From Dehalococcoidia bacterium (GTDB lineage: Bacteria > Chloroflexota > Dehalococcoidia > Lucifugimonadales > JAPUKM01): 64,000 nucleotides of DNA. Positions 29,343-51,423 of the stretch are shown here, piece by piece (position 1 is the first letter of the stretch; every line of letters begins with the position of its first letter). Both the position numbers and the translations under genes were made by a program. The stretch is from NCBI GenBank assembly GCA_965248865.1, contig CBDFKP010000002.1:213573-277572 (forward strand), read 5' to 3'. The notes below the pieces were generated by a model. The model saw nothing but the letters and a program-made list of their open reading frames with translations, did not search any database and was not told the origin of the DNA.

Positions 29343-29813
29343 GTGAGCGATAGTTTGGAGTTCGACCGGACGCTGCTGGGGAAGGAGTCTGTCCCTCAGG
29401 CGTTGACGGTGGATAGGAAGGCCATCTTGAAGTACTGCCGCCTCGCCGGTATCACCAGTCCCATTCATACCGATGATGAGGCGGCCAGGACCGCGGGCTA
29501 TCGCGGTATGGTGGCGCCCATCTCCATGTACGCCTCCATGGTGCGGGGCGAGCGCCCGGACATAAAGCTGAGCTTTGGCCGCACGCAGCTCTTCGCCGGA
29601 GCTACTATCGAGGCTCTGGTCCCCGTGTGCGCGGGGGACGTGGTGACCGGAGTCACCTGGCTCAAGGATGTGTACGCCAAGACCGGGCGCTCCGGCACGA
29701 TGGTGTTTATAGTGTGGGAGACCTCATTCTCCAATCAGGATGGGGAGAAGGTGGCGGTGGTCAGGCAGTCGTACGTCAGGAGGAGCGACCCCGGAGGTCA
29801 ACACGCCGGGTAG
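29343..29813 (+). CDS. Hot-dog fold protein, MaoC-dehydratase N-terminal (FAS1/HadA-like) type, copy 1
   Basis: 156 aa, GTG start. AGITSPIHTDDEAARTAGYRGMVAP. C-terminal KTGRSGTMVFIVWETSFSNQDGEKV. Confidence 0.7.
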   Translation: MSDSLEFDRTLLGKESVPQALTVDRKAILKYCRLAGITSPIHTDDEAARTAGYRGMVAPISMYASMVRGERPDIKLSFGRTQLFAGATIEALVPVCAGDVVTGVTWLKDVYAKTGRSGTMVFIVWETSFSNQDGEKVAVVRQSYVRRSDPGGQHAG

Positions 29814-29821
29814 AGGCGACC

Positions 29822-30268
29822 ATGGTGGTGCAAGACGTTCAGTTCAACCGTAGCCTGCTGGGGGTGAAGCGTCCGGCGGGAAGGTTTTCCGTTACGCGGG
29901 AGGCAATCCTGAGGTACGCGGCGGTCACCGGCTATGGCGACCATATCCATGCGGGCGATGGGTCCGGCCCCAGGGGGGTTGTGGCTCCGCCCGCCTTCTG
30001 CGCTGTGCTCTCCTGGGCCATTCGGCCACTGGATATAGACCTGAAGGGGGTCGGCGCCGGGCTGCTGGCCGGGGAGACCATCCACCGGGCGGCTCCCGTC
30101 TACGCCGGGGATACCCTGGAGGCCACCATCCACCTTCAGAGGGTGTACACCAAGACCGGGCGATCGGGGACCATGACGTTCGTGGTCTGGACCATCTCCT
30201 TTACCAACCAGGATGGCCACCTGGTGGAGACAGAGGAGAAGTCGTTCGTGTACAAGGAGAGGGAGTAG
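29822..30268 (+). CDS. Hot-dog fold protein, MaoC-dehydratase N-terminal type, copy 2
   Basis: Start MVVQDVQFNRS. Paralogous to copy 1 (KTGRSGTMTFVVWTISFTNQDGHLV). Confidence 0.7.
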   Translation: MVVQDVQFNRSLLGVKRPAGRFSVTREAILRYAAVTGYGDHIHAGDGSGPRGVVAPPAFCAVLSWAIRPLDIDLKGVGAGLLAGETIHRAAPVYAGDTLEATIHLQRVYTKTGRSGTMTFVVWTISFTNQDGHLVETEEKSFVYKERE

Positions 30269-30271
30269 GCG

Positions 30272-30706
30272 GTGCCGCTCTACTACGGGGATGTGGAGGT
30301 AGGCGACGAGCTTGGGCCGCTGGAGAAGGTGGTGGACAGGGCCGCGGTCCAGGAGTTCAGCGGCATCTGGGGAAGCAATAGATCCAACCCAACCATCTTC
30401 ACGGACCCTGAGCAGGCGCGGCGGGAGATGCTTCCGGACGTCATCGTTCCAGGGCCTATGAGTATGGCTTTCTTGGCCCAGCTGCTCACCACCTGGGCGG
30501 ACGGCGGCTGGATAAGCAAGCTGGACGTGGTATTTCGCCAGACGGTGCCCCACGAGACGCCGCTGCGGGTGGTGGGCGTGGTCACGGACAAGTATCAGGC
30601 AGAGGGCGGGGGCCATATAGAGTGCGACGTGTACCTTGAGACCGCAGAGGGAGAGCGTCTGGTTGGAGGGCAGGCTATAGTGATACTGCCATTAGGCCCA
30701 CCCTGA
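30272..30706 (+). CDS. Hot-dog fold protein, MaoC-like C-terminal type
   Basis: 144 aa. VGDELGPLEKVVDRAAVQEFSG, PGPMSMAFLAQLLT. The hydratase-2 motif is degenerate (see findings). Confidence 0.65.
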   Translation: MPLYYGDVEVGDELGPLEKVVDRAAVQEFSGIWGSNRSNPTIFTDPEQARREMLPDVIVPGPMSMAFLAQLLTTWADGGWISKLDVVFRQTVPHETPLRVVGVVTDKYQAEGGGHIECDVYLETAEGERLVGGQAIVILPLGPP

Positions 30707-30761
30707 TGGGGGCTAGACTCAGCGATACGGCGTAGCGACACTTCAAACAGGAGGAGGGAGC

Positions 30762-31682
30762 ATGGTCACTCGTATACGGCAGATCGTATCCCTGGCGGAG
30801 GAGATGGAGGAGGCGGCGGCCCTGTACAACAGGGTGCTGGGAATGGAGGTGGGCTGGCGCACGGAGATGCCGCAGTTTGGGCTGACCAAGCTGGTCATGC
30901 CCGCCGGAAACGAGACCTTCTTCGAGATATTGCAGCCGGTGGACCCCAAGAGCCGTGCCTGGCAATTCTTCCACGTGGACCGTGCCGGCGGTGGGAAGTA
31001 CTTCTCCTTGATTGTTGAGACGGATGACCTGGATGCCCTTCTGGCTCGTGCCGACGATGCCAACGCTCGCATCAGCACGAGGTCGGAGGGGGCCGGCGCC
31101 AACAGCAAGAGCGCCTTCATGCACCCGCTGGGGATGAACGGGGTGCTCATAGAGATTCTGCAGCCGCCGCCGGGCACCTGGCCCAACGCCGGGCCGGAGG
31201 AAACCCAGAGCGTGGCGTTAGGGGCCCTGGTGACGCGGTTGCGCCAGGTGGTGGTACTGGTGCGTGACCTGGAGGAGGCCGTTCACCGGTGGGCCACGCT
31301 GTTTGGACTGAAGGTCACCAACAGGTTTCACGTAGCCCACGGCGACCTGAACGCGGCTATTCTGCCGTTTGGCAAGAGCGGGACGTTCCTGGAGCTGGCC
31401 ACGCCCGCCGGCTCCGACTCCTCCGCGGCACGCTACCTGGAGCGGTTCGACGAGGGGCTGTACCTGGCGATCTTCGAGACGCCGGACCTGGCGGCAGCGG
31501 AGGCGAGGATACGGGCACAGGGGGAGGCGCGTATCTCCCAGGTTGCTCGGGAGGACTCCGGGCTGGCCGGGTTCAGGAGCCTGTGGCTGCACCCTCGCTC
31601 CATGAAGGACGCGTTCATCCAACTCTCGGAGGCCTCCGGCGACAATCCCTGGCCGCCGGGCGGCGACGACTGGTACAAGTAG
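30762..31682 (+). CDS. Two-domain VOC (glyoxalase/dioxygenase/epimerase-fold) protein
   Basis: 306 aa. Two repeated modules starting IRQIVSLAEEMEEAAALYNRVLG and LRQVVVLVRDLEEAVHRWATLFG. Confidence 0.7.
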   Translation: MVTRIRQIVSLAEEMEEAAALYNRVLGMEVGWRTEMPQFGLTKLVMPAGNETFFEILQPVDPKSRAWQFFHVDRAGGGKYFSLIVETDDLDALLARADDANARISTRSEGAGANSKSAFMHPLGMNGVLIEILQPPPGTWPNAGPEETQSVALGALVTRLRQVVVLVRDLEEAVHRWATLFGLKVTNRFHVAHGDLNAAILPFGKSGTFLELATPAGSDSSAARYLERFDEGLYLAIFETPDLAAAEARIRAQGEARISQVAREDSGLAGFRSLWLHPRSMKDAFIQLSEASGDNPWPPGGDDWYK

Positions 31683-31910
31683 GCCATTTCGGAGCGGATA
31701 CCGTCGCCACGCTCAGCCCCGGGCACGGGTGCGCCCCACGTGGCTGGCTCGCCGTCCCCTGCGGTGTGGCTGCCTCTATGCGTCAAGCCTCTACGCCGCG
31801 GCGTGGGCCGCTTTTCTGTGGCAGCTCCCGCTGGATACGGCGTTGTAACGTCTCCACTCTAGGTATAAACTGGGACTGCCTGCCGTATGGGCGGCGGAAG
31901 AGGAGCGCTT

Positions 31911-33116
31911 ATGTCTACTGAGCTGATCGCTGGCATAACCGTGGGACATGCCATCTATACGATGAGCGTGCTGATAGTAGCCCTGGTGGCCTCTTGGATT
32001 GGTCGGTTCGCGGCAAACCGTGCGAAGACTCGGCTCCACAAGGCCGATAGCACGAGCCTGATGGCCCAGATCGTGGACGATGTGGAGGAGCCCGGCTTCC
32101 TGCTGGTCATCCTGGCGGGTGTATATCTAGCTCTCATAGGGCTGCCCCCGGTGGCCGACCACGAGCTAGTGGTGCGCCGCGGCTTCACGGTCCTTGCGGT
32201 GGTCCTGGTAGTCTATTCCATTATGCGAGTCCAGGCCCATACCGTCACCTGGTACATCTCCAGGATAGAGCGGAGGAGCATACAGGCTAAGGCGCTGAAC
32301 ACCATGCTGCCCATGGTCAAGCGGACTATCGGCATTTTCGTGCTGGTCATGGGAGCCCTGATCATCATGGACCAGCTGGGGATCGCCATCGCTCCCCTGG
32401 TAGCGGGTCTCGGTATCGCCGGCCTGGCGGTGGCATTGGCCCTGCAGGGGACGTTGACCAATTTCTTCGCCGGAATCAACCTCCTCACCGATGGCTCGGT
32501 CCGGGTCGGCGACTACATAGAGCTGGAGGGAGGGTTGGCCGGTTACATCGATCAGATAGGCTGGAGGACCACCAGGATTCGGATGCTGGCCAACAACATG
32601 ATCATCATCCCCAACTCGAAGATGGCGGACAGCATCACCACCAACTACAACTTTCCGGAGGAGCAGATGTCGGTCTATATCACCGTGGGGGTGGCCTACT
32701 CCAGCGACCTGGATCTTGTGGAGCGGGTGACGGTGGAGGTGGCCAAGCAGATCATGGGAGAGACGACCGGCTCGGTGGAGGGATATGAGCCCTCCATCTG
32801 GTATACGGACTTCGCCGACTCCAATATCAACTTCTGGGTGGTGATGCGCTCCCATGGGTATATGGATATGTGGCTGTTGAAACACAACTTCATCAAGACT
32901 CTGTTGCGTCGCTACAATGAAGAGGGCATTGAGATCTCCTTCCCCGCACGGAACCTCTACTTCAAAAGCGAGATGCCCCGCTTGGAAGGGCAGGGGGTGA
33001 CCGGACGGAGAGGGGAGAGCCGTCCTCCGGCAGCCAGCACCGCAAAGGGCGTAGCTCTACACCAGGACATGGCATCCGCCGAGGGTGAAGGGGACGGTGG
33101 AGAGGGGGGCCCGTAG
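31911..33116 (+). CDS. MscS-family mechanosensitive channel
   Basis: Start MSTELIAG after a GGAAGAGGAG RBS. TM helices, then GTLTNFFAGINLLTDGSVRVGDYIEL (pore/beta-domain signature). Confidence 0.8.
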   Translation: MSTELIAGITVGHAIYTMSVLIVALVASWIGRFAANRAKTRLHKADSTSLMAQIVDDVEEPGFLLVILAGVYLALIGLPPVADHELVVRRGFTVLAVVLVVYSIMRVQAHTVTWYISRIERRSIQAKALNTMLPMVKRTIGIFVLVMGALIIMDQLGIAIAPLVAGLGIAGLAVALALQGTLTNFFAGINLLTDGSVRVGDYIELEGGLAGYIDQIGWRTTRIRMLANNMIIIPNSKMADSITTNYNFPEEQMSVYITVGVAYSSDLDLVERVTVEVAKQIMGETTGSVEGYEPSIWYTDFADSNINFWVVMRSHGYMDMWLLKHNFIKTLLRRYNEEGIEISFPARNLYFKSEMPRLEGQGVTGRRGESRPPAASTAKGVALHQDMASAEGEGDGGEGGP

Positions 33117-33296
33117 GGTGCGTGTCGTCCGGGGTATGCGTCTGCAAGAGGGGGACGTGATGGCTGCGCTGAAGCTGACGCTGGCGATAGAGCACTCGCT
33201 ACGAGGTGGAGCGGGGCCTGATACCGCACGCCCTTGAGGTGGAGGAAAGGTGGAGGGGCTTTTCGCCGATACGGGCCTGGAGAGTTGAGCCGCTCG

Positions 33297-35042
33297 TTAC
33301 TCCTCTGGCGGCTGTCCCCGGCGCGCGGAGAACTGTCGAATGATGGTCAGCTCCTCCAGGGTGGGCGGCGGCTGCGCGTGGATGTCCGGGGCCACCTTGA
33401 GGTCCCAGCCGCACTGCTCCTTGATGGCGGCAATGGCCTCCTCCTGGGACGTACCCTCCTTGGCGTAGTAGCTGGTGAGCACCAGTTCATTGCTCTCCCC
33501 GGGCTTCTCCAGTATTCCAAGGTCGGTGACCACCGTGCGTATCCGGTCTCCGGGCGTGGTGATGAACCCCAGCTCGCTTCGGAACCGGCGAGGGGAGATG
33601 CGTCCGGTTACCAGTATTTCGCCGGCGCCCATGGCGCAGTCGTTGTGGCCACCGGAGCCCGCCATCATGGTGCCGTCCGCCAGGCGGGTGATGTTGATGT
33701 TGGCGTGTCTATCGATCTCGGCGATGCCCAGGATGCCCAGGCTGGGGCTCTCCGGGCCTCTAAGGAGTGACCCGTACATATCCGCCATGCTGCCGAACAT
33801 CTTGGGTGTGGAGAGGTGGGGGATTCCTGCCAGGGAGGCGTTATGAGGTCGGAAGCCGTAGTTCCCGAACCCGACCATCACCTCGACGTCGTAGTCCTGA
33901 GCGCGCAGAGAGGCGAAGGCCTGGAAGGTGGCGGGCAGGGCGATGCCGGGTCCGGCCTGGATAAAGCGGTAGTTGCCGCGACGGACGACCTCCTCTATTT
34001 TGCGGGCCGCGGCCACCGCCATCATCTCCACGTCGGTATACTCCTCCGACTGCTCCGAGGAGAAGGCGAGGGCCTGCTCCCCCACCTGGGACTGGCCGGT
34101 GCTCCAGAGCTTCTTCACCCGTTCCTCGCCCAGCTTTTCAAGGAAGGCTTCGTGGGTCGGCAGATCCAGGACCCACTCCTTGAGCCACGCGTTCACACCG
34201 TCTTGACCCTCCTGCGAGGCCTGCTGGAAGCCCCTGGTGAACTCGAAGTCGTTGATGTAAGGCTCGACCTCAGATACCCAGCCGTTGTAGAGCTCCCTTG
34301 GGTGAGCGCCCAGGGGAGCCTCGCAGACGGCATCCACCATGAAGGCTGGGATGGTGACTAGGGGCGAGTACCTACGGATAGTCTCGGTGGACACAACCTT
34401 CTCCACCGTCACGATGGTGCTCCGCGCGCTGGCTCTGGCTCCCCAGCAGTCCACGATCCAGTCGGGCTCCAGGATGGTGTTTCCGGCGGGATCGGCGGCA
34501 ATACCATGGATGATGGCGACGTCCGGGCGCAAGGCGCTCACCAGGCCAACCCTACCGCCATCGCCAAAGGGGGCATCCATCTCCGAGTAGACCTCAGGGG
34601 CAAGCTCCGAGCCGATGGAGCTTCCGAGGATGGAGCGCGTGGGTAGGAAGGGGACGCCGGTGCCGCCGGCCATGTACCTGAGGATGATGGTATAGATGGT
34701 CCACCGCTCCACCTCAAGGGGGGTGTCCCCGGCTATGTCCTGGATCCTTGGGGTGCGTCCGAAGGGCATAAGAGAGGAGATGACCTTGGTGGCCAGGCCG
34801 GTGTACGCTAGGAGGAAGTGGAGATCGCTGACCATGATGGAGGAGATGGTGAAACCGGGCCTGGTGCTCCAGAACTGCCGTATAACCTCATACAGGCCTG
34901 CGCTGCCACGCTGGCCCAGGAAGATGTGGTCACCGGGCGTAACGTGCCTGGATACCGCCTCTTGCAATGTGCAAAGCTTGGAGGGACCCTCATACTCCTG
35001 GGGCTGGAATGCGGCCACCATACGGTCAAGCTTGTCGCTCAT
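33297..35042 (-). CDS. Fused alpha+beta family-I-type CoA-transferase (glutaconate/3-oxoacid CoA-transferase-like)
   Basis: 581 aa. N-terminal half KLCTLQEAVSRHVTPGDHIFLGQ (subunit A-like). C-terminal half with GSGGHNDCAMGA (subunit B-like). Confidence 0.75.
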   Translation of the reverse strand: MSDKLDRMVAAFQPQEYEGPSKLCTLQEAVSRHVTPGDHIFLGQRGSAGLYEVIRQFWSTRPGFTISSIMVSDLHFLLAYTGLATKVISSLMPFGRTPRIQDIAGDTPLEVERWTIYTIILRYMAGGTGVPFLPTRSILGSSIGSELAPEVYSEMDAPFGDGGRVGLVSALRPDVAIIHGIAADPAGNTILEPDWIVDCWGARASARSTIVTVEKVVSTETIRRYSPLVTIPAFMVDAVCEAPLGAHPRELYNGWVSEVEPYINDFEFTRGFQQASQEGQDGVNAWLKEWVLDLPTHEAFLEKLGEERVKKLWSTGQSQVGEQALAFSSEQSEEYTDVEMMAVAAARKIEEVVRRGNYRFIQAGPGIALPATFQAFASLRAQDYDVEVMVGFGNYGFRPHNASLAGIPHLSTPKMFGSMADMYGSLLRGPESPSLGILGIAEIDRHANINITRLADGTMMAGSGGHNDCAMGAGEILVTGRISPRRFRSELGFITTPGDRIRTVVTDLGILEKPGESNELVLTSYYAKEGTSQEEAIAAIKEQCGWDLKVAPDIHAQPPPTLEELTIIRQFSARRGQPPEE

Positions 35043-35447
35043 CTGACGCTCCTCCCGATACCTTGGCTACTCGGTCGAGGGGATTATAGTCAAGGCGCTA
35101 CGGCGGTACAACCGTGCCTCTTCCGGAGAAGTTCGACAGCACCGAGCCATGCAGTCTTTGTACTGCATGGCCTCATCCAGAGGACTCTGCGACTCGTCCA
35201 GGGGGCCTACGTGGCAGGCTTGCCGTGATTTGTCGCCTGTGATAGAGTGCGGCTGCCGTCGGAGGCGGTAGGGGGATAGTTGTCCGCGCTGGTTCCCCGT
35301 TCGCCGTTTCCGTCACAAACGCGCGCCGGTCCGGCGCGAAGTCGGTGTACTAGTCTGTGTTCCACTGGGGGGGCGGGACTGCTTTCATGCCTGGGGGCAT
35401 GTCATGCGAGACCATTCTCCCTGTTCAGCTAGAGAGGAGACATCTCA

Positions 35448-36500
35448 GTGGCGCTAGTTATAGACAACCATATCCATCTCATCTCCGGGAGAGGCGATAA
35501 GCACTATCTGCCAACCAACTATCGGTGGACGCTGTGCATGAACTGGGCCTACCGCGGCGGTCCTCCCTACGAGCGTGACCCGATGGACCTCTACCCTCGC
35601 CAGGAGGAGCGGGTGGCCGACCCGGATGGCTCCGCCACCGTCGCCGCCATGGAGAGGGCGGGGGTTGACGCGGGCGTCCTTATTCACGCCGATTTCGGCC
35701 CAGGCCATGGCGAGACTCAGGAGCTCTCCATGGAGGAGATGCACAAGGACTACGCCGATCTCCAGAAAAAGTACCCCGGTAAGCTGTATGCCTTCGCGGG
35801 ACCGGACGTCCGGCGCCCCGGCTCCCTGGAGCTGGTGGAGAAGGCCTTTCGTGACTGGGACACCAAGGGGCTGAAGGTGTTTCCAGAGGTGGGCTACTTT
35901 GTCAACGACCCGATGCTCTACCCCTTCTACCAGAAGTGCTTGGAGTACGAGCGGCCGATAGCCATCTGCACCAACTTCGAGCCACCCTTCTCTCGCGGGC
36001 GGTTCAACGACCCCATCTACATCACGGATGTGGTGGCGGACTTCCCCGACCTGAACGTGATCATCTTTCACTGCGGCAACCCCTTTGAGCACTGGTTCGA
36101 TATCTCCCTGGCCATTGGGGGAGCGGCGCTGAACACCTACCTGGAGTTCGATGCGTGGATCCATCCGGGCCGGAGGTCGGAGGAGGAGATGGTGCGGAGG
36201 CTGGCCAAGACGCGTGACAGGGTAGGGGCCCACCGCATCACCTTCGGGACGGACTTCCAGTGCTCGCCGAGCAACTGGGGAGACCGCCGGGCTGATGATT
36301 ACGTTCGGCACGTAGATTTCTGGAAGGAGCTGCCGAAGACGGCGCTGAAGTATGGTGTGAACTTCAGCCAGGAGGAGGTGGACCTGATGATGGGGCTGAA
36401 CCTGGGCCGGCTGCTGGGTGTGGTGGATATGCCGGAGTACACCAAGAAGCGCAAGTATGGCTGGAGCATCCTGATGCCGCGGCCCATGCCGACGCCGTAG
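35448..36500 (+). CDS. Amidohydrolase-2 (PF04909-type TIM-barrel metal hydrolase/decarboxylase) paralog 1 of 6
   Basis: GTG start. IDNHIHL (HxH), IIFHCG, FGTDFQ metal-site motifs. Conserved tail VDMPEYTKKRKYGWSILMPRPMPTP. Confidence 0.85.
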   Translation: MALVIDNHIHLISGRGDKHYLPTNYRWTLCMNWAYRGGPPYERDPMDLYPRQEERVADPDGSATVAAMERAGVDAGVLIHADFGPGHGETQELSMEEMHKDYADLQKKYPGKLYAFAGPDVRRPGSLELVEKAFRDWDTKGLKVFPEVGYFVNDPMLYPFYQKCLEYERPIAICTNFEPPFSRGRFNDPIYITDVVADFPDLNVIIFHCGNPFEHWFDISLAIGGAALNTYLEFDAWIHPGRRSEEEMVRRLAKTRDRVGAHRITFGTDFQCSPSNWGDRRADDYVRHVDFWKELPKTALKYGVNFSQEEVDLMMGLNLGRLLGVVDMPEYTKKRKYGWSILMPRPMPTP

Positions 36501-36571
36501 TCTGTGAAGAGCAGGCGGCATCCGTTGGAAACTCGTATGGTCCTTGTATGGTCATAGAGGGAGGAACTGAT

Positions 36572-37642
36572 ATGGCGACGGTTATAGACAACCATGTCCA
36601 CCTCATATCCGGAACGCCCGGCAATGAGTATATGTCGCCCAACTACCGTTGGTACCACTGCTACAACTGGGCCTACGGTGGTGCACACAGGCCTCCCTAC
36701 GAGCGCGACCCCATGGATATGTACCCCCGCCAGGAGCAGCGGGTGGCGGACCCGGACGGCTCGGCCACGGTGAAGGCGATGGATGCCGCCGGTGTGGACG
36801 CCTGCGTGCTGATCCACGCCGACTTCGGTCACGGCTTTGGGGAGCTGGGGGCCAAGAGCATGGAGGAGATGCACCAGGACTACACGGACATCGCCAACCG
36901 GTACCCGGGCCGCTTCTATCCCTTCGCGGGGCCGGATGTCCGTCGTCCGGGGTCGCTGGAGATGGTCCGCAAGGGGCTGGCGGACGGTCGATTCAAGGGG
37001 CAGAAGGTGTTTCCGGAGGTGGGGTACTTCGCCAACGACCCGATGCTGTACCCCTTCTATAGCGCCCTGCTGGAGGCGGAAGCGCCGGTGGCTATCTGCA
37101 CCAACTTCGAGTCGCCCATGGCTCGCGGTCGGTACAATGACCCCATCTATATTACGGATGTGGTGGCGGACTTCCCTGACCTGAACGTCATCATCTTCCA
37201 CTGCGGCTACCCGTACCAGCACTGGTTTGAGATCTGCCTGGCCATTGCTCGGGCGGCCCTCAACGTGCACGTGACCGTGGAGCCGTGGCTGTGGGGATAC
37301 AGCGAGGCCGGTCCGGGGCGCGAGGAGGAGGGCATTCGGAAGCTGGCGAGGATCAGAGACTCCATCGGTGCCCACCGCATCCACTTCGGTACCGATGGCC
37401 AGTTCGCCAACACCAACTGGGGCGAGGGGTGTACGCAGACCTACATCAACCATGTCAACATTTGGAGAGAGCTGCCGGAACGGGCCAAGCGGTACGGGAT
37501 CACCTTCAGCCAGGAGGAGGTGGACCTGATGATGGGGCTGAACCTGGGCCGGCTGCTGGGTGTGGTGGATATGCCGGAGTACACCAAGAAGCGCAAGTAC
37601 GGCTGGAGTATCCTGATGCCGCGGCCCATGCCAACGCCGTAG
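36572..37642 (+). CDS. Amidohydrolase-2 paralog 2 of 6
   Basis: Start MATVIDNHVHL after GAGGGAGG. IIFHCG, FGTDGQ. Same tail. Confidence 0.85.
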   Translation: MATVIDNHVHLISGTPGNEYMSPNYRWYHCYNWAYGGAHRPPYERDPMDMYPRQEQRVADPDGSATVKAMDAAGVDACVLIHADFGHGFGELGAKSMEEMHQDYTDIANRYPGRFYPFAGPDVRRPGSLEMVRKGLADGRFKGQKVFPEVGYFANDPMLYPFYSALLEAEAPVAICTNFESPMARGRYNDPIYITDVVADFPDLNVIIFHCGYPYQHWFEICLAIARAALNVHVTVEPWLWGYSEAGPGREEEGIRKLARIRDSIGAHRIHFGTDGQFANTNWGEGCTQTYINHVNIWRELPERAKRYGITFSQEEVDLMMGLNLGRLLGVVDMPEYTKKRKYGWSILMPRPMPTP

Positions 37643-37704
37643 TCTGTGAAGAGGCGGCGTCCGTTGGAAATTCGTACGGTTTCAGATAGAGGGAGGGAAC
37701 TGAT

Positions 37705-38775: not shown

Positions 38776-38817
38776 GAGGCACCGAGGTTGGTGCGAGCAC
38801 AGAAGGAGGGAGCTGGA

Positions 38818-39876: not shown

Positions 39877-40041
39877 GCCACGGCCAAGAGGAGAGCGGTA
39901 GGAAGGTTGTGGTGTTTCCCGCTGGGCAGACCCCTGCCTACACCTCAAAGCCGCTTGTGGTACTATAGCGGGCGGCTGCCGGAGCACTGGCGGATGCGCC
40001 CAATGCTCGACGCCAATGCGTAGATTGTGGAAGGAGTGACT

Positions 40042-41187: not shown

Positions 41188-41200
41188 AGGAGCGAACGCT

Positions 41201-42274: not shown

Positions 42275-42370
42275 TCTGTGAAGAGCAGGCTGCATACGTT
42301 GAAGCATTCCTATGCCCCGTTCCGGGCCGACTACGTTGGCTGACGCACGAGGCGAACGCAAGGGGAGGGT

Positions 42371-43447: not shown

Positions 43448-43531
43448 GGTAGCAAACTGCCCGGCCCGCATTGAGCTGGAGCCGAAGGCGGCGCTGGTTA
43501 TGCCGGCACAACCGATGTGAGAGAGGGCACC

Positions 43532-44842
43532 ATGGCAACATCCAAGACCAGTGCTGGGGCCTCAGCGAAGGGTATGCTTGCGCCCTACCGGGTCCTGGAC
43601 CTCACCGAGAGCGGGTGCATGTACGGTGGTAGACTTCTGGCCGACCTGGGGGCGGATGTGATCAGGATAGAGCGGCCTGGTGGCTCCCCCAGCAGAAGCA
43701 TCGGCCCCTTCTGGCACGACCAGGTCCACCCTGAGCGGAGCCTCTTCTGGTGGGCCTACAACGTCAATAAGCGTAGCATCACCCTGGACCTGGAATCCGA
43801 GGACGGGGCCGCGATATTCAAGGGGCTGGCTCAGACGGCCGATTTCGTCCTGGAGTCGAACGCGCCGGGGTACATGGATGGGCTGGGATTGGGCTACGAC
43901 GACCTGAGCAGCATTAACCCGGGGATCATCGTCTGCTCCATCACACCATTCGGACAGACGGGCCCCAAGGCCCACAACGCCTGGAGCGACCTATCAGTGT
44001 GGGCTAGTGGTGGGCCGGCCTATCTGACGGGGCACCCGGACCGCCAGCCCATTGGGATCAGCTTCATGTACCAGGCTACGCTGCACGGCGGCGCTGAGGC
44101 GGCGCCGGCCTGCATGATCGCCCTCCACCACCGTGAGCGGACGGGTGAGGGGCAGTTCATAGACGTCTCCATCCAGGAGTGTGCCTACTGGGTACTCACC
44201 TCCTGGCAGGAGTTCTGGGATACCGCGGGAACCATCCCCAGGCGTCAGGCGGGGTTCTCCGGCGTGGGGCGAGGACATACGCCTATGGCGGCGGGGGCGA
44301 CTCGGGAGCGGCGGCAGCTCTATTCCGCGAAGGACGGGTTCATTATGTACACGGTCCAGGGAGGCGTCTGGGGTGGAGCCCAGTCCAGCAGCGCGGTGGT
44401 TGAGTGGATGAAGGAGGAGGGGATGGCTCCCGATTGGCTGCTGGAGTTCGACTGGGTCCGTGGGTTTGACCTTTCGACTATGGGAGGGGATACCCTGGAT
44501 GCGCTGGAGGAGTGCTTTATACAGTTCTTCCTGACCAAGACCAAGCTGGAGATTACGGAGCGGAGCGTCCAGGGCCACTTCATGGTTGGTCCGGTGAATA
44601 CTCTGGAGGATGTGGGGACGTATCCACACCTACAGGCCAGGGAGTTCTTCCAGGAGCTGTGGCACGAAGAGCTGGGGGCCAACGTCACCTACTGTGGCCC
44701 TGCCGTTAAGGCATCAGAGACGCCGCTGAGTATCCGACGCCGTGCGCCGCTCATCGGTGAGCATAACGACGAGGTGTACCGCCAGGAGCTTGGGATGGCT
44801 GGGGAGGAGCTGGTGGCACTCAGATACGCCGGCGTCATCTAG
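43532..44842 (+). CDS. Family III CoA-transferase, alpha-type (Asp-less), pair 1
   Basis: YRVLDLTESGCMYGGRLLADLGADVIRIERPGG. Nucleophile region reads ISFMYQATLHGGAEAAPACMIALHHRERTGEGQFIDV, with no Asp. Confidence 0.85.
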   Translation: MATSKTSAGASAKGMLAPYRVLDLTESGCMYGGRLLADLGADVIRIERPGGSPSRSIGPFWHDQVHPERSLFWWAYNVNKRSITLDLESEDGAAIFKGLAQTADFVLESNAPGYMDGLGLGYDDLSSINPGIIVCSITPFGQTGPKAHNAWSDLSVWASGGPAYLTGHPDRQPIGISFMYQATLHGGAEAAPACMIALHHRERTGEGQFIDVSIQECAYWVLTSWQEFWDTAGTIPRRQAGFSGVGRGHTPMAAGATRERRQLYSAKDGFIMYTVQGGVWGGAQSSSAVVEWMKEEGMAPDWLLEFDWVRGFDLSTMGGDTLDALEECFIQFFLTKTKLEITERSVQGHFMVGPVNTLEDVGTYPHLQAREFFQELWHEELGANVTYCGPAVKASETPLSIRRRAPLIGEHNDEVYRQELGMAGEELVALRYAGVI

Positions 44843-44871
44843 ACACCGGGGCCGTAGTCCAGGAGGGAGCG

Positions 44872-46113
44872 ATGTCAGAGACGCCGCGGGCACTTGAGGG
44901 AATAAAGGTCGTGGTCATCGGCGCTGCGGTGACCGCCCCGACCACGGGACGCTACCTGGCGATGCACGGAGCCACGGTGGTGCGGGTGGACAGCCACACC
45001 CGCATGGACGGGCTGCGGACTCAGCGACCCTTCCCGCCCGACGAGGCGCCCACCGCCGATACCGGCGTTTGGTGGGCCAACGTCAACTCCAGCACCCAGT
45101 GCGTGGCGGTGGACTGGAAGGTGCCCACCGGCAAGGGCATTATCGATAAACTGCTCCGTTGGGCCGATGTGGTGATCGAGAACTTCTCAGCCGGGACTCT
45201 GACGGCTATGGGGTTCGGGTACAAGACGGTATCCAAAGACAACCCGGGCGTTATCTACCTGAGCTCTTGCCTCATGGGGCAGACGGGGCCGTTGTCCGGC
45301 GTGGTAGGTCTGGGGACGGCGGGTATGGCCTTCGGCGGATTCGTCCACATGACCGGCTGGCCTGACCTGGAGCCGACACCGATCATGACCCAGTACACCG
45401 ACTTCATCAATCCCAGGATGGGCGCAGCGGTTATCCTGGCCGCCCTGGACCACAGGAGACGGACGGGCAAGGGGCAATACCTTGACCAGGCCCAAGTGGA
45501 GGGTGGCCTCCAGTTCCTTGCTCCCCTGGCGATGGACTGGCTCAGCAACGGGCGCTCGGCCAACCGCTCCGGAAACACGATACCGGAGGCCGCTCCCCAT
45601 AACATCTACCCGTGCCAGGGCGAAGACCGGTGGTGCTTCATCGGCGCGTTCAATGATGAGGAGTGGGACGGCCTCTGCCGGGCCATGGGCCAGCCCTCTT
45701 GGACGAGGGACGACAAGTTCAACACGGTGGCGGGGAGAAAGGGGAATGAGGATGAGCTGGATGAGCTGATAGGCCGGTGGACCAGGGACAAGACCGCCGA
45801 GGAGGTAGAGGCGGCTCTTCAGGCGGAGGGTGTGCCCTCATCCGTGGTGGAGAACGCCAGGGACGCGCGGGAGGATGAGCAACTGGGCCACCGGGGGTTC
45901 TTCCGGCAGATAGAGCACAGCGTTATCGGCACGCACACCTATCGGGGGCCGTGCTTCCGGCTTTCGAAGACGCCGGACAACCAGTTTGCGGGCCCGACGC
46001 TGGGGCAGCACAACTTCGAGGTGTGCACCATGATTGGCATGGACGATGAGGAGATTGCCGAGGCCATTATCGAGGGAGGGCTGGGCACCGAGCCTGTTGC
46101 GGTTGAGACATAG
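44872..46113 (+). CDS. Family III CoA-transferase, beta-type (Asp-containing), pair 1
   Basis: LEGIKVVVIGAAVTAPTTGRYLAMHGATVVRVD. TQYTDFINPRMGAAVILAALDHRRRTGKGQYLD. Confidence 0.85.
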   Translation: MSETPRALEGIKVVVIGAAVTAPTTGRYLAMHGATVVRVDSHTRMDGLRTQRPFPPDEAPTADTGVWWANVNSSTQCVAVDWKVPTGKGIIDKLLRWADVVIENFSAGTLTAMGFGYKTVSKDNPGVIYLSSCLMGQTGPLSGVVGLGTAGMAFGGFVHMTGWPDLEPTPIMTQYTDFINPRMGAAVILAALDHRRRTGKGQYLDQAQVEGGLQFLAPLAMDWLSNGRSANRSGNTIPEAAPHNIYPCQGEDRWCFIGAFNDEEWDGLCRAMGQPSWTRDDKFNTVAGRKGNEDELDELIGRWTRDKTAEEVEAALQAEGVPSSVVENARDAREDEQLGHRGFFRQIEHSVIGTHTYRGPCFRLSKTPDNQFAGPTLGQHNFEVCTMIGMDDEEIAEAIIEGGLGTEPVAVET

Positions 46114-46164
46114 CCCCATCGAGTATATCCACAGCTCCTCCCGTTCCATCCTGATTGAGGGAAG

Positions 46165-47496
46165 GTGATGGCGGTAGCCGATACAGTGAGCCCCGTTCCA
46201 GCCGAAGGTATGCTTACGCCGTTCCGGGCCTTGGACCTCACCGAGGGCGGGTGCGCTGTGGGCGGCAAGACGCTGGGAGACCTGGGAGCGGACGTCATCC
46301 AGATTGAGCCGCCCGGAGGGTCTTCCTCCCGCGGGATCGGCCCCTTCCTGCACGGCGACGTCCATCCGGAGAAGAGCCTCTTCTGGATGGCGTATAACTG
46401 CAACAAAAGAGGCATTACCCTGGAGATCGCCACGGCAGATGGTGCTGCGATCTTTCGCAGGCTGGTTGAGACCGCGGATTTCGTTCTGGAGTCGTATCCC
46501 CCCGGATACATGGATGGGCTGGGATTGGGCTACGGCGCGCTAAGCCAGACCAACCCGCGGCTTATCGTCGCCTCCATAACGCCGTTTGGGCAGAGCGGCC
46601 CCAAGGCCCACAACGCCTGGAGCGACCTGACGGTCTGGGCCAGCGGTGGAACGGTGTTTCTGACGGGAGACCAGGAGCATCCGCCCCTGGGGGTGAGCTT
46701 CATGCATCAGGCGACCCTGAACGGTGGAGCCGAGGCCGCAGCCGCCTGTATGATCGCCCATCACTACCGGCAGAGGAGTGGGCTGGGACAGCATATAGAC
46801 CTCTCCATGCAGGCGGTGGCCTATGGGGTCAACACCTCCACCATGGAGTTCTGGGAGACGGAGGGTGCGATACCCCAGCGATCCGACCACGGCAACGCAC
46901 CCGGCGGTGCAACCGCGCCGCCCCAGGCAGGGGGAAGTTCCGGGGGGCGGCCCGGTGTGCGCGGGAGGCAGCGGTTTTACGGTAAGGACGGCATCATCCT
47001 CTGGTCGGTGAATGCCGGCCCCAGGGGCGCTGGGAGGTCCAGCGCGCCGGTGGTCGACTGGATGCGGGAGGAGGGAGCCGCTCCTGACTGGCTGTCGGAG
47101 CACGACTGGGATGGCGGGTTCGACCTGACGGCGTTGCCGGAGGAGCGGTTCCGTGCAATGGAAGAGGCCTTTGCCGACTTCATCGGAAGCAAGACCGGGC
47201 GGGAGATCATGGAACGGGGCATCTCCCACGACTTCGTGGTGGGCGTGGTGAACAGCCCCAAGGACATCGGCACCCATCCACAGTTGCAGGCGCGGGATTT
47301 CTTTCACCGGGTTGCGAATGAGGGCCTGGGTGAGGAGGTGGTCCACTGCGGGCCACCCGTCAAGGCTTCAGAGACTCCCCTGGCCCTGAGGCGGCCGGCA
47401 CCCCGGATTGGAGAGCATAACGCAGAGGTGTACGGCGATGAGTTGGGACTGACCACCGAGAATCTGGTGGCGCTCATGTACGCCGGCGTAATCTAA
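46165..47496 (+). CDS. Family III CoA-transferase, alpha-type (Asp-less), pair 2
   Basis: FRALDLTEGGCAVGGKTLGDLGADVIQIEPPGG. VSFMHQATLNGGAEAAAACMIAHHYRQRSGLGQHIDL. Confidence 0.85.
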   Translation: MMAVADTVSPVPAEGMLTPFRALDLTEGGCAVGGKTLGDLGADVIQIEPPGGSSSRGIGPFLHGDVHPEKSLFWMAYNCNKRGITLEIATADGAAIFRRLVETADFVLESYPPGYMDGLGLGYGALSQTNPRLIVASITPFGQSGPKAHNAWSDLTVWASGGTVFLTGDQEHPPLGVSFMHQATLNGGAEAAAACMIAHHYRQRSGLGQHIDLSMQAVAYGVNTSTMEFWETEGAIPQRSDHGNAPGGATAPPQAGGSSGGRPGVRGRQRFYGKDGIILWSVNAGPRGAGRSSAPVVDWMREEGAAPDWLSEHDWDGGFDLTALPEERFRAMEEAFADFIGSKTGREIMERGISHDFVVGVVNSPKDIGTHPQLQARDFFHRVANEGLGEEVVHCGPPVKASETPLALRRPAPRIGEHNAEVYGDELGLTTENLVALMYAGVI

Positions 47497-47502
47497 ATAA
47501 CA

Positions 47503-48798
47503 GTGAGTAGTGAAAAAGCAGTGGCAGAGAAGCAGGCGTTGAAGGGAGTCAAGGTCGTCATCATAGGTGGCGTGGTCACCGCGCCCACCATGGGTCGCTA
47601 CCTTGCCCTGCACGGAGCCACGGTGGTGCGGGTGGACGGCCACACCCGTATGGACAGCATGCGCTACCAGCGACCCATTCCCCCTGAGATGGTGGGAGAC
47701 CCCAACGGCGGTGTCTGGTGGGCCAGCATCAACTCCAGTGCCCTGTGCATAGGCCTGGACCTGACCAAGCCCACGGGCAAGGCAATCGTGAACCGGCTGG
47801 TGCGCTGGACCGACGTGGTGGTGGAAAACTTCTCCGCCGGCACCCTGGCCAAATGGGGCGTGGACTACCACACCGTGGCCAGGGAGCGACCGGAGGTGAT
47901 CTACCTGAGCTCCTGCCTCTTCGGTCAGACCGGGCCCTGGTCCCGCGTGTCCGGATACGGGACGGCCGGAGCGGCCATGGCGGGGTACGACTTTATCACC
48001 GGGTGGCCGGACCAGGAGCCGACGCCGCTCCTTACCCAGTACACCGACTACATCAACCCGAAGTTTGGCGTGGCCACCATCCTGGCTGCCCTGGAGTACC
48101 GGGACCGGACGGGCCGCGGGCAGTACCTGGACCAGGCCCAGGTAGAGGGTGGTCTCCAGCTCATCGCCCCCGTTCACATGGACTGGCTCAACAACGGCCA
48201 CACCATGGAGCGTTCCGGCAACAGGGTGACATGGGCGGCGCCCCATGGGACGTTCCCTTGCCAGGGAGACGACCGATGGTGCGCCATCGCCGTAACCAAC
48301 GACCAGCAGTGGCAGGGGTTCTGCCGTGCCCTGGAGGAGTGTGCGTGGCCCCGGGAGGAGCGGTTCGCGACGCTGCTGGGGCGGAAACGCCACGAGGAGG
48401 AGCTGGAGGAGTTGCTGGGGCAGTGGACCGGCGAGCGGTCTGCGGAAGAGGCGGAGGCCGGTCTGCAGCGTGAGGGCGTCCCAGCCTCCGTGGTGGAGAA
48501 CACGAAGGACACCTATGAGGACCCACAGCTGCGACATCGCGGTTTTTTCCGCAAGATCCGCCACGCCTTTATCGGCGAACATAGCTACCGGGGGCCATCC
48601 TTTATACTTGGACGGACGCCGGATAGCCAGTCCGCGGGCCCAGCCCTTGGCGAACACAGCATTCAGGTGTGTAGAATGGTGGGCATGACGGATGATGAGA
48701 TAACGGAGGCTCTTCAGGAGGGCGGACTGGGTGCGGTGCCCGCAAACCTGGCCCCAGCACCGGAGTCCGGTAGCACGGCTATGGATACGTCACCATAG
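47503..48798 (+). CDS. Family III CoA-transferase, beta-type, pair 2
   Basis: GTG start 6 nt after the pair-2 alpha stop. TQYTDYINPKFGVATILAALEYRDRTGRGQYLD. Confidence 0.85.
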   Translation: MSSEKAVAEKQALKGVKVVIIGGVVTAPTMGRYLALHGATVVRVDGHTRMDSMRYQRPIPPEMVGDPNGGVWWASINSSALCIGLDLTKPTGKAIVNRLVRWTDVVVENFSAGTLAKWGVDYHTVARERPEVIYLSSCLFGQTGPWSRVSGYGTAGAAMAGYDFITGWPDQEPTPLLTQYTDYINPKFGVATILAALEYRDRTGRGQYLDQAQVEGGLQLIAPVHMDWLNNGHTMERSGNRVTWAAPHGTFPCQGDDRWCAIAVTNDQQWQGFCRALEECAWPREERFATLLGRKRHEEELEELLGQWTGERSAEEAEAGLQREGVPASVVENTKDTYEDPQLRHRGFFRKIRHAFIGEHSYRGPSFILGRTPDSQSAGPALGEHSIQVCRMVGMTDDEITEALQEGGLGAVPANLAPAPESGSTAMDTSP

Positions 48799-48844
48799 AG
48801 ATCAGCGTCCTGATCAACCCGGGGAGCATTGCAAGAGGAGAGAG

Positions 48845-50137
48845 ATGTCGACAGCACAGAGCGATACATCGGCAACGGCGGAGGGGATGCTTTCTCCATT
48901 CCGTGTCCTGGACCTCACGGAGGGTGGATGTCTCCTGGGGGGGAAGGTGCTGGGCGAGCTTGGGGCTGACGTTATCAAGATAGAGCCACCGGGCGGCTCA
49001 CCCACCCGCCGGACCGGCCCATTCTGGCATAATCAGGTCCATCCAGAGTACAGCCTTTTCTGGTGGGCCTACAACGTCAACAAGAGGAGCATCACTCTCA
49101 ACATAGAGGCCTCGGATGGAGCCGAGATATTCAAGAGCCTGGTGGGGACCGCTGACTTCGTTTTGGAGTCGTTCCCGCCGGGGTACATGGGTGGCATAGG
49201 ACTTGGCTACGAGGTACTGAGTAAAATAAACCCTCGGGTGATCATGGCGTCGATAACCCCTTTTGGCCCCACAGGGCCCAAGGCGAACAACGCGTGGTGC
49301 GACCTGACCATCTGGTCCAGCGGAGGGCCGGTCTATATGACGGGAGACCCCGATACTACGCCCGTAGCCATAAGCTACATGCACCAGGCCACACTCAATG
49401 CAGGTGCGGAGGCGGCGGCTGCGTCCATGATGGCGCACTACCACCGGGAGAACACAGGCCAGGGGCAGCTCATAGACGTCTCCATGCAGGAGGTCGCCTA
49501 CTGGATCATGACCTCCTGGCAGGAGTTTTGGGAGACCGAGGGTACCATACCGAAGCGTTTCGGCGGGCCACCCAGAGCCGCCGAGGAGGCCCATCTCCGT
49601 GAGCGCCGCCAGATGTTCTCTGCGAAGGACGGGTACGTGGTCTTCTGGGTCCAGGGTGGCTGGGGGGGTGGAACTCACTCCACCGAGGCCGTGCTCAAGT
49701 GGATGGAGGAGGAGGGAGAGACCAATGAGTGGATTCTCAACTTCGACTGGGAGCATGACTACGACCTCTCCAAGATGACCAACGAGACCCTGGATGCGCT
49801 GGAGCAGCCCTTCGTGGACTTCTTTGCGACGAAGACCAAGGCGGAGATCTCCGAGCGGGCCATCCTGGACCACATCATGATCGGCGCCATCAACAACAGC
49901 GAGGACCTGGCAAACCACCCACAGCTACAGGCCCGGAGCTTCTTTGAGGAGGCGTGGCATGAGGAGCTGGGGGAGAAGGTGACCTACTGCGGCCCGGTTT
50001 TGAAGGCCTCTGAAGCACCCCTGACGCTCCGGAGGCGTCCGCCCTTGATAGGTGAGCACAATGAGGAGGTCTACCGGCAGGAGCTGGGGCTATCCGTGGA
50101 GGAGCTCACGGCACTGAGACATGCGGGTGTCATCTAA
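48845..50137 (+). CDS. Family III CoA-transferase, alpha-type (Asp-less), pair 3
   Basis: Start MSTAQSDTS. FRVLDLTEGGCLLGGKVLGELGADVIKIEPPGG. ISYMHQATLNAGAEAAAASMMAHYHRENTGQGQLIDV. Confidence 0.85.
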   Translation: MSTAQSDTSATAEGMLSPFRVLDLTEGGCLLGGKVLGELGADVIKIEPPGGSPTRRTGPFWHNQVHPEYSLFWWAYNVNKRSITLNIEASDGAEIFKSLVGTADFVLESFPPGYMGGIGLGYEVLSKINPRVIMASITPFGPTGPKANNAWCDLTIWSSGGPVYMTGDPDTTPVAISYMHQATLNAGAEAAAASMMAHYHRENTGQGQLIDVSMQEVAYWIMTSWQEFWETEGTIPKRFGGPPRAAEEAHLRERRQMFSAKDGYVVFWVQGGWGGGTHSTEAVLKWMEEEGETNEWILNFDWEHDYDLSKMTNETLDALEQPFVDFFATKTKAEISERAILDHIMIGAINNSEDLANHPQLQARSFFEEAWHEELGEKVTYCGPVLKASEAPLTLRRRPPLIGEHNEEVYRQELGLSVEELTALRHAGVI

Positions 50138-50193
50138 CCGCGTTCTTGACCGAGAGAATGCAAGCTTGAAACCAACGGGAAAGGAAGAGCGAG

Positions 50194-51423
50194 ATGGCTG
50201 ATACACCCAGGGCCCTGGAGGGATTGAAGGTCGTGGTGATCGGCGGCGTTGTGACCGCTCCGCTGACGGCACGATACCTGGCACTCCATGGAGCCACGGT
50301 CGTTCGAGTTGACAGCCACGTTCGTAGAGACGGCGTTCGGATGCAACGGCCCTTCTCCCCGGAGATGGTGGGCAATCACAGTGGAGGAGTCTGGTACGCC
50401 ACCATCAACAGCAGTGTCCAGGGCATAGCGGTGGACTGGTCCAAGCCGATGGCCATGGTCATTATGAACAAGCTGGTTCGCTGGGCGGACGTGGTGATCG
50501 AGAACTTCGGCGCCGGCACCCTGGAAAAATGGGGCATAGACTACTACACCATCTCCAAGGACAACCCCGGCGTCATCTATCTGAGCTCCTGCCTCATGGG
50601 CCAAACAGGCCCTTGGGCTCCGCTCACGGGGCTGGGGACTGCGGGAGGAGCGATAGCCGGCGTGTTTGACCTGTGCGGCTGGCCTGAGGGCGAGCCCACG
50701 CCCATCCAGACCCAGTACACCGATTTTGTAAACCCGAAGTTCGGCGTTGCCGCAATCATGGCTGCCCTGGAGTATCGCCGGCGCACAGGCCGGGGCCAGT
50801 ACCTGGACCAGGCCCAGGTGGAGGGCGGTATTCAGGTGATCGCCCCACTGGTGATGGACTGGATGAGCAACGGCCGTCTGGCGACTCGCACGGGAAACAA
50901 GATCGCCGAGGCGGCGCCCCACGGGGTGTTCCGGTGCGCCGGCGACGACAGGTGGGTTGCCATTGGGGTGTTCACTGATGACCAGTGGGTGGGGCTCCGC
51001 CGCGTGAAGGGCGTGCCGTCGGTGCTTGGGGAGGGCAAGTTCAAGACCATAGCAGGTCGGAAGGAGCGGGAGGAGGAGCTGGCCGCCCTGATAGAGGGGT
51101 GGACTATGCAGCATACCCCGGAGGAGGTGGAGGCGTGGCTCCAGGCCGAGCAGGTGCCCTCAGCCGTGGTGGCGAACTCCAAGGATACCAGGGAGGACGT
51201 TCAGCTAGACCACCGGGGGTTCTTCCGTAGGATAGAGCACACCGTTATTGGGGAGCATACCTACCGTGGGCCGGCCTTTCGGCTTACGAAGACGCCGGAC
51301 AACCAGTTTGAGGGACCTGCCATGGGTCAGCACAACTTCGAGGTGTGCGCCATGCTGGGCATGAGCGACGACGAGATCTCCGAGGCGATTGCCGAGGAGG
51401 CCCTGGGCTTTGAGCCTGTGTAG
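50194..51423 (+). CDS. Family III CoA-transferase, beta-type, pair 3
   Basis: LEGLKVVVIGGVVTAPLTARYLALHGATVVRVD. TQYTDFVNPKFGVAAIMAALEYRRRTGRGQYLD. Confidence 0.85.
   Translation: MADTPRALEGLKVVVIGGVVTAPLTARYLALHGATVVRVDSHVRRDGVRMQRPFSPEMVGNHSGGVWYATINSSVQGIAVDWSKPMAMVIMNKLVRWADVVIENFGAGTLEKWGIDYYTISKDNPGVIYLSSCLMGQTGPWAPLTGLGTAGGAIAGVFDLCGWPEGEPTPIQTQYTDFVNPKFGVAAIMAALEYRRRTGRGQYLDQAQVEGGIQVIAPLVMDWMSNGRLATRTGNKIAEAAPHGVFRCAGDDRWVAIGVFTDDQWVGLRRVKGVPSVLGEGKFKTIAGRKEREEELAALIEGWTMQHTPEEVEAWLQAEQVPSAVVANSKDTREDVQLDHRGFFRRIEHTVIGEHTYRGPAFRLTKTPDNQFEGPAMGQHNFEVCAMLGMSDDEISEAIAEEALGFEPV

Follow-up and report, generated by a model that had tools for sequence, protein, structure and literature searches.

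A conserved block of amidohydrolase and family-III CoA-transferase genes as a probable CoA-dependent catabolic cluster in a SAR202-like Chloroflexota genome

The subject of this analysis is a block of about 22 kb, at positions 29343-51423 of a 64,000-nucleotide stretch of DNA from a Dehalococcoidia bacterium (phylum Chloroflexota); this stretch, referred to here as the window, corresponds to C2:213573-277572 in a 3.1-Mb, four-contig genome. On balance, the block is probably one conserved CoA-dependent catabolic cluster belonging to a SAR202-like lineage of Chloroflexota and, by analogy with characterised relatives of its CoA-transferases, its substrates are most likely dicarboxylic acids. The core spans 16 kb of closely spaced genes that all run in one direction, and in it four amidohydrolase genes of the Amidohydro_2 family (AH1-4), a gene for a protein resembling short-chain dehydrogenases/reductases (SDR-like), two further amidohydrolase genes (AH5-6) and three alpha/beta pairs of family-III CoA-transferase (CT3) genes follow one another.

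Synteny across related genomes had been put forward as a check in the original prediction, which was made from the sequence alone, and the order of the block does recur in four contigs of other Chloroflexota (L023, L108/L109, L111 and a 1.77-Mb contig), whose proteins are 52-85% identical to those of the window. The order is AHx4-SDR-AH-CT3 in L023. In L108/L109, genes for an MscS-type channel, an NMT1-type binding protein and, on the minus strand, a family-I (Gct-like) CoA-transferase homolog (CoAT1) precede three AH genes, the SDR-like gene, two AH genes and three CT3 pairs, after which come a luciferase-like oxidoreductase (LLM) gene, a fourth CT3 pair, an epimerase-like gene and an FAA hydrolase gene. 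L111 and the 1.77-Mb contig start with a PHP gene, two or three hot-dog (HD) genes, a VOC gene, two or three acyl-CoA dehydrogenase (ACAD) genes and a YHS-like gene, followed by MscS where present, the minus-strand CoAT1 gene and the AH genes.

Conservation extends to the individual paralogs. For every CT3 subunit, identity is 73-85% with the L109 subunit at the corresponding position, versus 49-66% with the other paralogs, and in a tree of the amidohydrolases AH5, AH6 and AH2/3 each pair with single L108 genes at starred support. At least four AH lineages and the CT3 pairs match one-to-one across genomes; the duplications are therefore older than the divergence of these genomes, and the copies have stayed separate since. 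Paralogs kept distinct for so long would fit distinct specificities, and their age and individual conservation agree with the earlier suggestion that the block serves a family of related substrates.

The core AH, CT3 and SDR-like genes also recur together, rearranged, in distant genomes, which bears out the co-occurrence expected of a functional unit in the original prediction. In another family of the class the order is LLM-AH-AH-CT3-CT3-AH-CT3-CT3-AH. A further contig (L110), whose AH is 48% identical, carries an operon of AH, acyl-CoA mutase, fused double CT3, crotonase and B12-subunit genes that continues with an ABC transporter with an NMT1-type binding protein, an SDR-like gene and a second crotonase gene, all of which receive only generic names from NCBIfam. 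Simpler arrangements are CT3a-CT3b-SDR-like (G012) and an SDR-like gene followed by AH on a Propionibacteriales contig. Two paralogous loci were found in the genome under study: in the first a hot-dog trio faces AH-SDR-crotonase, and the second reads isochorismatase-SDR-fused CT3, beside a dienelactone hydrolase gene. In the rearranged loci the gene beside the SDR-like/CT3 pair encodes a hydrolase of varying family, which would favour an order of reactions in which the hydrolase makes the acid and the transferase loads it.

In total, the genome holds 21 family-III CoA-transferase, 17 Amidohydro_2 and 22 LLM genes, and among named homologs the best belong to "SAR202 cluster bacterium Io17-Chloro-G3" and to groundwater Chloroflexi metagenome-assembled genomes. 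For SAR202, expansions of two paralog families, the CaiB/BaiF-type CoA-transferases and the luciferase-like monooxygenases, have been published (Landry et al. 2017, PMC5395668), and the link drawn earlier with expansions in marine Chloroflexota holds. A full-text literature search combining SAR202 and amidohydrolase gave nothing relevant. The cluster was not found described in the searchable literature and, as a CoA-transferase-dependent catabolic cluster, is situated inside the known SAR202 paralog expansions.

Layout of the block and its surroundings

Genes were called from a listing of open reading frames (ORFs) and Pfam scans, with curated models taken from NCBIfam. Gene content and order agree with the original prediction, every family that it named being matched by Pfam at the positions below, which are those of the window; the evidence is given in brackets.

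29343..29813, plus strand: HD1, hot-dog protein, FAS1_DH_region/HadA-like (Pfam; NCBIfam HadA 8e-8; PDB alignment)
29822..30268, plus strand: HD2, hot-dog protein, FAS1_DH_region type (Pfam; alignment)
30272..30706, plus strand: HD3, MaoC-type hot-dog half (Pfam below cut-off; PDB alignment to 5i7n)
30762..31682, plus strand: VOC, tandem protein with two methylmalonyl-CoA-epimerase-like domains (Pfam; TIGR03081)
31887..33116, plus strand: MscS-type channel (Pfam)
33297..35042, minus strand: fused GctA+GctB-like family-I CoA-transferase homolog (CoA_trans/CitF-like), 581 aa (Pfam; PDB 1poi)
35448..36500, plus strand: AH1, Amidohydro_2, rare subfamily (Pfam; alignment)
36548..37642, plus strand: AH2, Amidohydro_2 (Pfam; tree)
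37705..38775, plus strand: AH3, Amidohydro_2, ortholog of L108_AH2 (Pfam; tree)
38788..39876, plus strand: AH4, Amidohydro_2, likely start 38818 (Pfam; alignment; tree)
40027..41187, plus strand: atypical extended-SDR-like protein, Pfam Epimerase (Pfam; model; Foldseek; alignment)
41201..42274, plus strand: AH5, Amidohydro_2, ortholog of L108_AH4 (Pfam; tree)
42371..43447, plus strand: AH6, Amidohydro_2, ortholog of L108_AH5, the copy chosen for modelling (Pfam; model; tree)
43517..44842, plus strand: CT3 alpha-1, BbsE-like, Asp-less, likely start 43532 (Pfam; 9fn0_A 1.1e-56; alignment)
44872..46113, plus strand: CT3 beta-1, BbsF-like, catalytic Asp in QYTDF (Pfam; 9fn0_B 1.5e-62; alignment)
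46165..47496, plus strand: CT3 alpha-2, Asp-less (Pfam; alignment)
47503..48798, plus strand: CT3 beta-2, with Asp (Pfam; alignment)
48845..50137, plus strand: CT3 alpha-3, Asp-less (Pfam; alignment)
50194..51423, plus strand: CT3 beta-3, with Asp (Pfam; alignment)
51899..52897, minus strand: luciferase-like oxidoreductase (LLM), candidate member (Pfam; best NCBIfam models F420-dependent)
52901..54073, minus strand: Amidohydro_1/3, candidate member (Pfam)
54138..55160, minus strand: Amidohydro_2 of another subfamily, candidate member (Pfam)

Both arrays are true tandem repeats: the six AH copies recur every 1130 nt or so, and the CT3 array is built of three alpha+beta units of 2.64-2.68 kb each. 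Pfam scans of most of the larger ORFs of the window gave, upstream of the block, an insertion sequence and genes for thioredoxin, PlsY, a radical-SAM/methyltransferase pair and a PHP protein, and downstream, on the minus strand, the LLM oxidoreductase, two more amidohydrolases and gltX. The cluster plausibly reaches 55160, with the LLM, Amidohydro_1/3 and extra Amidohydro_2 genes; the LLM gene is a possible member because LLM genes also follow or precede the arrays in relatives (L109; G129/G231). A genomic island was considered and ruled out, as GC content is even across the region (0.61-0.64) and the flanks consist of syntenic housekeeping genes.

According to the Pfam scans, the block itself contains no acyl-CoA synthetase, thiolase, ACAD or regulator gene, and no transporter gene except MscS; nor, among the ORFs scanned, does a regulator or dedicated transporter gene adjoin it. 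The list of missing enzymes in the original prediction therefore stands for the block; the absence of the ACADs is, judged from orthology, peculiar to this genome and due to relocation. In relatives, two or three ACAD genes sit between the VOC and Gct-like genes, and the orthologous ACAD-ACAD-YHS cassette of this genome lies at C3:476277-479132 (L112:8277-11123; 71-74% identity), where it adjoins an LLM gene and a gene whose 790-aa product combines a serine recombinase with SCO4226-like and cyclase domains. The pathway would therefore have its dehydrogenases, moved out of the block.

CoA-transferase pairs, amidohydrolases and SDR-like protein

The six CT3 genes match PF02515 over its full length (225-312 bits; cut-off 23.3), and the best solved relatives of alpha and beta are the two different subunits of benzylsuccinate CoA-transferase, BbsE and BbsF: in a PDB search, alpha matched 9fn0_A at 1.1e-56 versus 9fn0_B at 8e-20, and beta matched 9fn0_B at 1.5e-62 versus 9fn0_A at 5.6e-25. 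The catalytic Asp of family III, which forms an acyl-aspartyl anhydride, is present in the three beta subunits only (QYTDF/Y), the three alpha subunits reading M[YH]QATL, like the aligned BbsE chain. Throughout the genome, all eight adjoining or fused CT3 pairs (8/8) combine one Asp-bearing and one Asp-less member, and the single genes carry the Asp in 7/7 cases; a heteromer of a catalytic and a non-catalytic subunit seems to be the rule for CT3 pairs in this genome. The pairs of the block are thus predicted to form BbsEF-like heteromeric CoA-transferases with a catalytic beta subunit. Dicarboxylic acids are proposed as substrates because characterised two-subunit relatives act on 1,2-dicarboxylates, with succinyl-CoA as the donor. 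A homologous two-subunit, succinyl-CoA-dependent transferase has been described in the phthalate-activating PhtSa/PhtSb (bioRxiv 10.1101/2022.07.29.502009).

A bbs-type benzylsuccinate pathway was ruled out, as the remaining bbs genes are absent: neither BbsG, BbsH, BbsCD, BbsAB nor a UbiD decarboxylase is encoded near the block, and no thiolase, crotonase or classical SDR was found among the window ORFs scanned with Pfam. Fused CT3 proteins were also seen. An 871-aa protein encoded at C3:627119-629734 (L001:9119-11734) joins an Asp-less and a second CT3 domain in a DddD-like architecture, and the fusion of L110 is similar, with 822 aa.

All six AH genes match PF04909 at 59-80 bits (cut-off 26.4) and belong to a subfamily that has nine copies in the genome, 59-86% identical to each other, and no model in NCBIfam. 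This subfamily is rare: of 301 genomes from the class, 13 contain it at E<=1e-40, a word-index search gave 51 clusters, and only 55 cluster representatives among 1.84 billion reach E<=1e-30. In two alignments the metal ligands are kept, invariant or nearly so, as HxH (H8/H10), a later His, H208(211), and the strand-8 Asp, D269(277), and the C-terminus forms a conserved basic, Pro-rich tail (KKRKYGW...PRPMPTP). The AlphaFold model of AH6 is a confident TIM barrel, (beta/alpha)8, with a predicted local distance difference test (pLDDT) score of 92, and its fold neighbours are BB4693, an uncharacterised Bordetella protein (Z 24.0), LigW (22.9), the lactonase BmulJ_04915 (22.9), ACMSD (21) and LigI (20); the neighbours at Z 20-24 include a fuconolactonase and DHBA decarboxylases. 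A sequence search of the PDB returned a sole match, 3irs, at 9e-7. The 3' 300 nt of AH1 and AH4 (36199-36500 and 39575-39876) are 98-100% identical in DNA and their 5' parts 60-80%, which indicates recent gene conversion within the array.

With respect to transport, at the locus C4:379541-385622 (L005) a lone gene of this AH subfamily lies between a gene for an NMT1/phosphonate-type binding protein and genes for ABC permeases and an SBP_bac_5 protein. NMT1-type binding proteins also accompany AH in L108 and L110 and thereby provide a candidate uptake system.

The SDR-like protein has an invariant Rossmann motif, GGTGPTGP, and its model adopts a GalE-like two-domain extended-SDR fold, with a Foldseek probability of 1.0 to many epimerases and dehydratases. 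An alignment of 33 sequences shows a His-rich set of invariant residues (H39, H43, E44, H53, H55, H145) together with Y80-G-R82. NCBIfam has no model for it, and relatives in a protein atlas are labelled solely "NAD-dependent epimerase/dehydratase family". The family comprises 402 confirmed loci in a species-genome collection, in Burkholderiales, Binatia, Solirubrobacteraceae, Porticoccaceae, Dehalococcoidia and other hosts. Of 80 loci fetched, from several phyla, 17 have a CT3 gene as the immediate same-strand neighbour of the SDR-like gene, and 22 have one within the flanks; other frequent neighbours encode TctC-type binding proteins and a double hot-dog protein, which in Burkholderiales loci occurs together with CT3 and the SDR-like gene.

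Upstream genes and the case against a single cluster

HD1 and HD2 match the HadA and fused HadA/HadB models of NCBIfam, the HadA match being far below cut-off (32.6 vs 180 bits). The VOC protein consists of two glyoxalase-type domains (Pfam) and matches TIGR03081 in two stretches at 108.7 bits, just below the cut-off of 114.95. The MscS gene is present in the L108 and L111 blocks and is probably a passenger, since one orthologous block, that of the 1.77-Mb contig, lacks it. The two halves of the Gct-like protein match GctA (1poi_A, 1.6e-24) and GctB (1poi_B, 2.8e-7), and 5mzw is also among its PDB matches.

The hot-dog trio, perhaps together with the VOC protein, could instead be a HadABC-like dehydratase set of the lipid-related genes further upstream (PlsY, a Tes/HMPTM-like radical-SAM protein, a CMAS-like methyltransferase and PHP), so that the true cluster would start at 33297. 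This we consider improbable. The HadA and HadA/HadB matches fit such an assignment, relatives have the same PlsY-rSAM-MT-PHP-HD-HD-VOC order, and the VOC gene is followed by a terminator-like hairpin (31790-31811). However, the HadA score is a small part of what the model requires, relatives place ACADs right after the VOC gene and before the Gct-like gene, the second hot-dog trio of this genome faces an AH-SDR-crotonase operon, and the double hot dog of Burkholderiales is joined to CT3 and the SDR-like gene.

Several observations weigh against reading the whole block as one catabolic cluster, and the first of these concern its organisation. Synteny with the closest relatives also takes in unrelated upstream genes (thioredoxin, PlsY, radical SAM, methyltransferase, PHP), so that, taken alone, it counts for little as evidence, above all for the hot-dog and VOC genes, whose shared order may reflect mere genome collinearity; the rearranged loci described above give independent support. 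The block comprises at least three transcription units, separated by gaps of 204, 180 and 405 nt; a promoter and terminator scan of 28000-47900 gave counts at chance level (promoters 6 vs 4.7, terminators 8 vs 9.3) and is therefore uninformative on operon structure. Some AH homologs, including the genome's own copies on C1 and C4, have no CT3 nearby, and Pfam detected no C-C-cleaving thiolase or lyase in the block. Together with the position of MscS in mid-block, the hairpin after the VOC gene and the large numbers of CT3, Amidohydro_2 and LLM genes, which mean that such families will often lie near each other, most of these points would also suit a paralog-rich neighbourhood in place of a pathway. 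Amidohydro_2 and CaiB-type families would then have been amplified side by side, the hot-dog/VOC, MscS and Gct-like genes being independent units and the shared order plain collinearity. We regard this explanation as rather unlikely, as it does not readily account for the interleaving of AH genes and CT3 pairs in another family of the class, for the AH/CT3/SDR-like trio that recurs with different partners, for the SDR-CT3 adjacency across phyla or for the conservation of each paralog individually.

The second group of adverse observations concerns catalysis, three of the proposed downstream enzymes (hot-dog, SDR-like and, tentatively, Gct-like) being without canonical catalytic residues. Aligned with 5i7n, HD3 has Ser in place of the catalytic Asp and Phe in place of the His, and HD1 keeps the motif His without the Asp (GITSPIH); with the motif degenerate in both, the hydration step attributed to the hot-dog proteins in the original prediction is weakened. 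At the triad site of the SDR-like protein, the 33-sequence alignment contains no conserved Ser, Tyr or Lys, and only H145 is invariant in the helix after strand 5, so that the redox or epimerisation step proposed for it would have to be carried out by an atypical extended SDR without the Ser-Tyr-Lys triad. At the B-half site expected for the catalytic Glu, the Gct-like protein and its orthologs carry MVGFG, and a distant homolog MTGTG; HMMER did not align this segment to GctB, and the site was placed by motif only. The protein thus tentatively lacks the catalytic Glu, which weakens the case for the CoA transfer first assigned to it. As for the amidohydrolases, lactonases, decarboxylases and an uncharacterised protein tie in the fold comparison at Z 20-24; neither sequence nor fold separates the reaction classes, and the earlier choice of ring, lactone or amide opening or (de)carboxylation is not narrowed by them.

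Some features of the flanks are recorded here in their own right. A complete DDE_Tnp_1_4 transposase (435 bits) is encoded at 23013-24344 on the minus strand, about 5 kb upstream of the block. At 25870-28232 (plus strand), a radical-SAM gene, whose product has a zinc ribbon of HMPTM type, overlaps the methyltransferase gene and adjoins PlsY; this trio is syntenic in a relative and may be a lipid-modification module. The PlsY ORF (25251-25700, plus strand; 149 aa) covers only positions 51-157 of the 164 of the profile, and the PlsY of the relative has 196 aa; either the true start lies further upstream or the gene has been shortened. A single ORF at 57249-58820 (minus strand) is an LspA-RluD fusion with signal peptidase II, S4 and RluA-type pseudouridine synthase domains (Pfam), and 4591-6716 (minus strand) holds two adjoining half-size cobalamin-independent methionine-synthase-like genes, of 331 and 324 aa.

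Proposed pathway and comparison with known systems

If the block is a CoA-dependent catabolic cluster, its products could act in three steps. Cytoplasmic metal-dependent AH enzymes would convert related carboxylated substrates, by ring or amide opening, hydration or decarboxylation, into free acids that are probably dicarboxylic. The BbsEF-like CT3 heteromers, with their catalytic beta and Asp-less alpha subunits, would then convert these acids into CoA esters in an ATP-free reaction, for which the analogy with BbsEF and PhtSa/Sb makes succinyl-CoA the most likely donor. The SDR-like protein, the tandem VOC protein, the hot-dog trio, the Gct-like protein and the ACAD pair would finally process the CoA esters.

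A more specific version, which we put forward as a speculation with little chance of being right, is that polycarboxylated acids (carboxyl-rich alicyclic or branched) lose their carboxyls stepwise via the cluster. A CT3 pair would thioesterify one carboxyl of a 1,2-dicarboxylate, and the neighbouring carboxyl would be removed or rearranged on the CoA ester, with the AH enzymes (LigW/ACMSD-like), the Gct homolog (Glu-less and AibAB-like) and the tandem VOC protein (methylmalonyl-CoA-epimerase-like) as candidate catalysts. The role of the "dead" SDR-like and hot-dog proteins would be to bind the CoA esters as partners. If true, this would open recalcitrant marine organic matter to attack by a new route that needs neither oxygen nor ATP, and the AHs would be the first members of Amidohydro_2 with CoA esters as substrates.

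Oxidation of the ocean's most persistent dissolved organic carbon is attributed to SAR202 bacteria, and we know of no expanded SAR202 enzyme family with a known substrate. The cluster provides a compact, conserved and testable unit, with a rare AH subfamily, three individually kept CT3 pairs and a widespread SDR-like partner. Its substrates, once found, would give chemistry to the "paralog expansion" hypothesis, and would also give a function to the SDR-like family that lies beside CoA-transferases in Burkholderiales, Binatia, Actinomycetota and Chloroflexota.

Several parts of the block resemble known systems and depart from them. As in BbsEF, two CT3 genes adjoin, encode proteins of about 410-440 aa related to BbsE (alpha) and BbsF (beta), and carry the Asp in one subunit only; unlike in the bbs system, three such pairs stand in tandem beside amidohydrolases, in a Chloroflexota host with no sign of anaerobic aromatic degradation. 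The ACMSD/LigW/LigJ/LigI branch of PF04909 shares with the AH enzymes the Pfam match, the HxH, His and Asp ligands and the TIM-barrel model at Z 20-24, but the latter are only 13-19% identical to any solved member and have the extra Pro-rich tail, in addition to lacking a curated model. The hot-dog trio recalls the HadABC and ChsH1-ChsH2 hydratases in consisting of three small, tightly packed genes, two of the non-catalytic FAS1_DH type and one of the MaoC type, and differs from them in that its MaoC-type member has neither Asp nor His and that its scores are far below the family cut-offs. AibA/AibB (PMC7756340), which decarboxylates 3-methylglutaconyl-CoA and resembles Gct but has no catalytic Glu, belongs to the same Gct-like fold family as the block protein, in which, by motif placement, no Glu is seen at the expected B-half site either; the block protein is however an A+B fusion of 581 aa, with Gly rather than Cys at this site. 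With regard to the SAR202 expansions (PMC5395668), the available part of the published text treats the transferases as one paralog family and mentions neither catalytic/non-catalytic pairs nor an AH subfamily or SDR-like partner, whereas the lineage, the many CT3 and LLM genes and the idea of an ATP-free loading of many acids onto CoA are common to those expansions and to the cluster described here.

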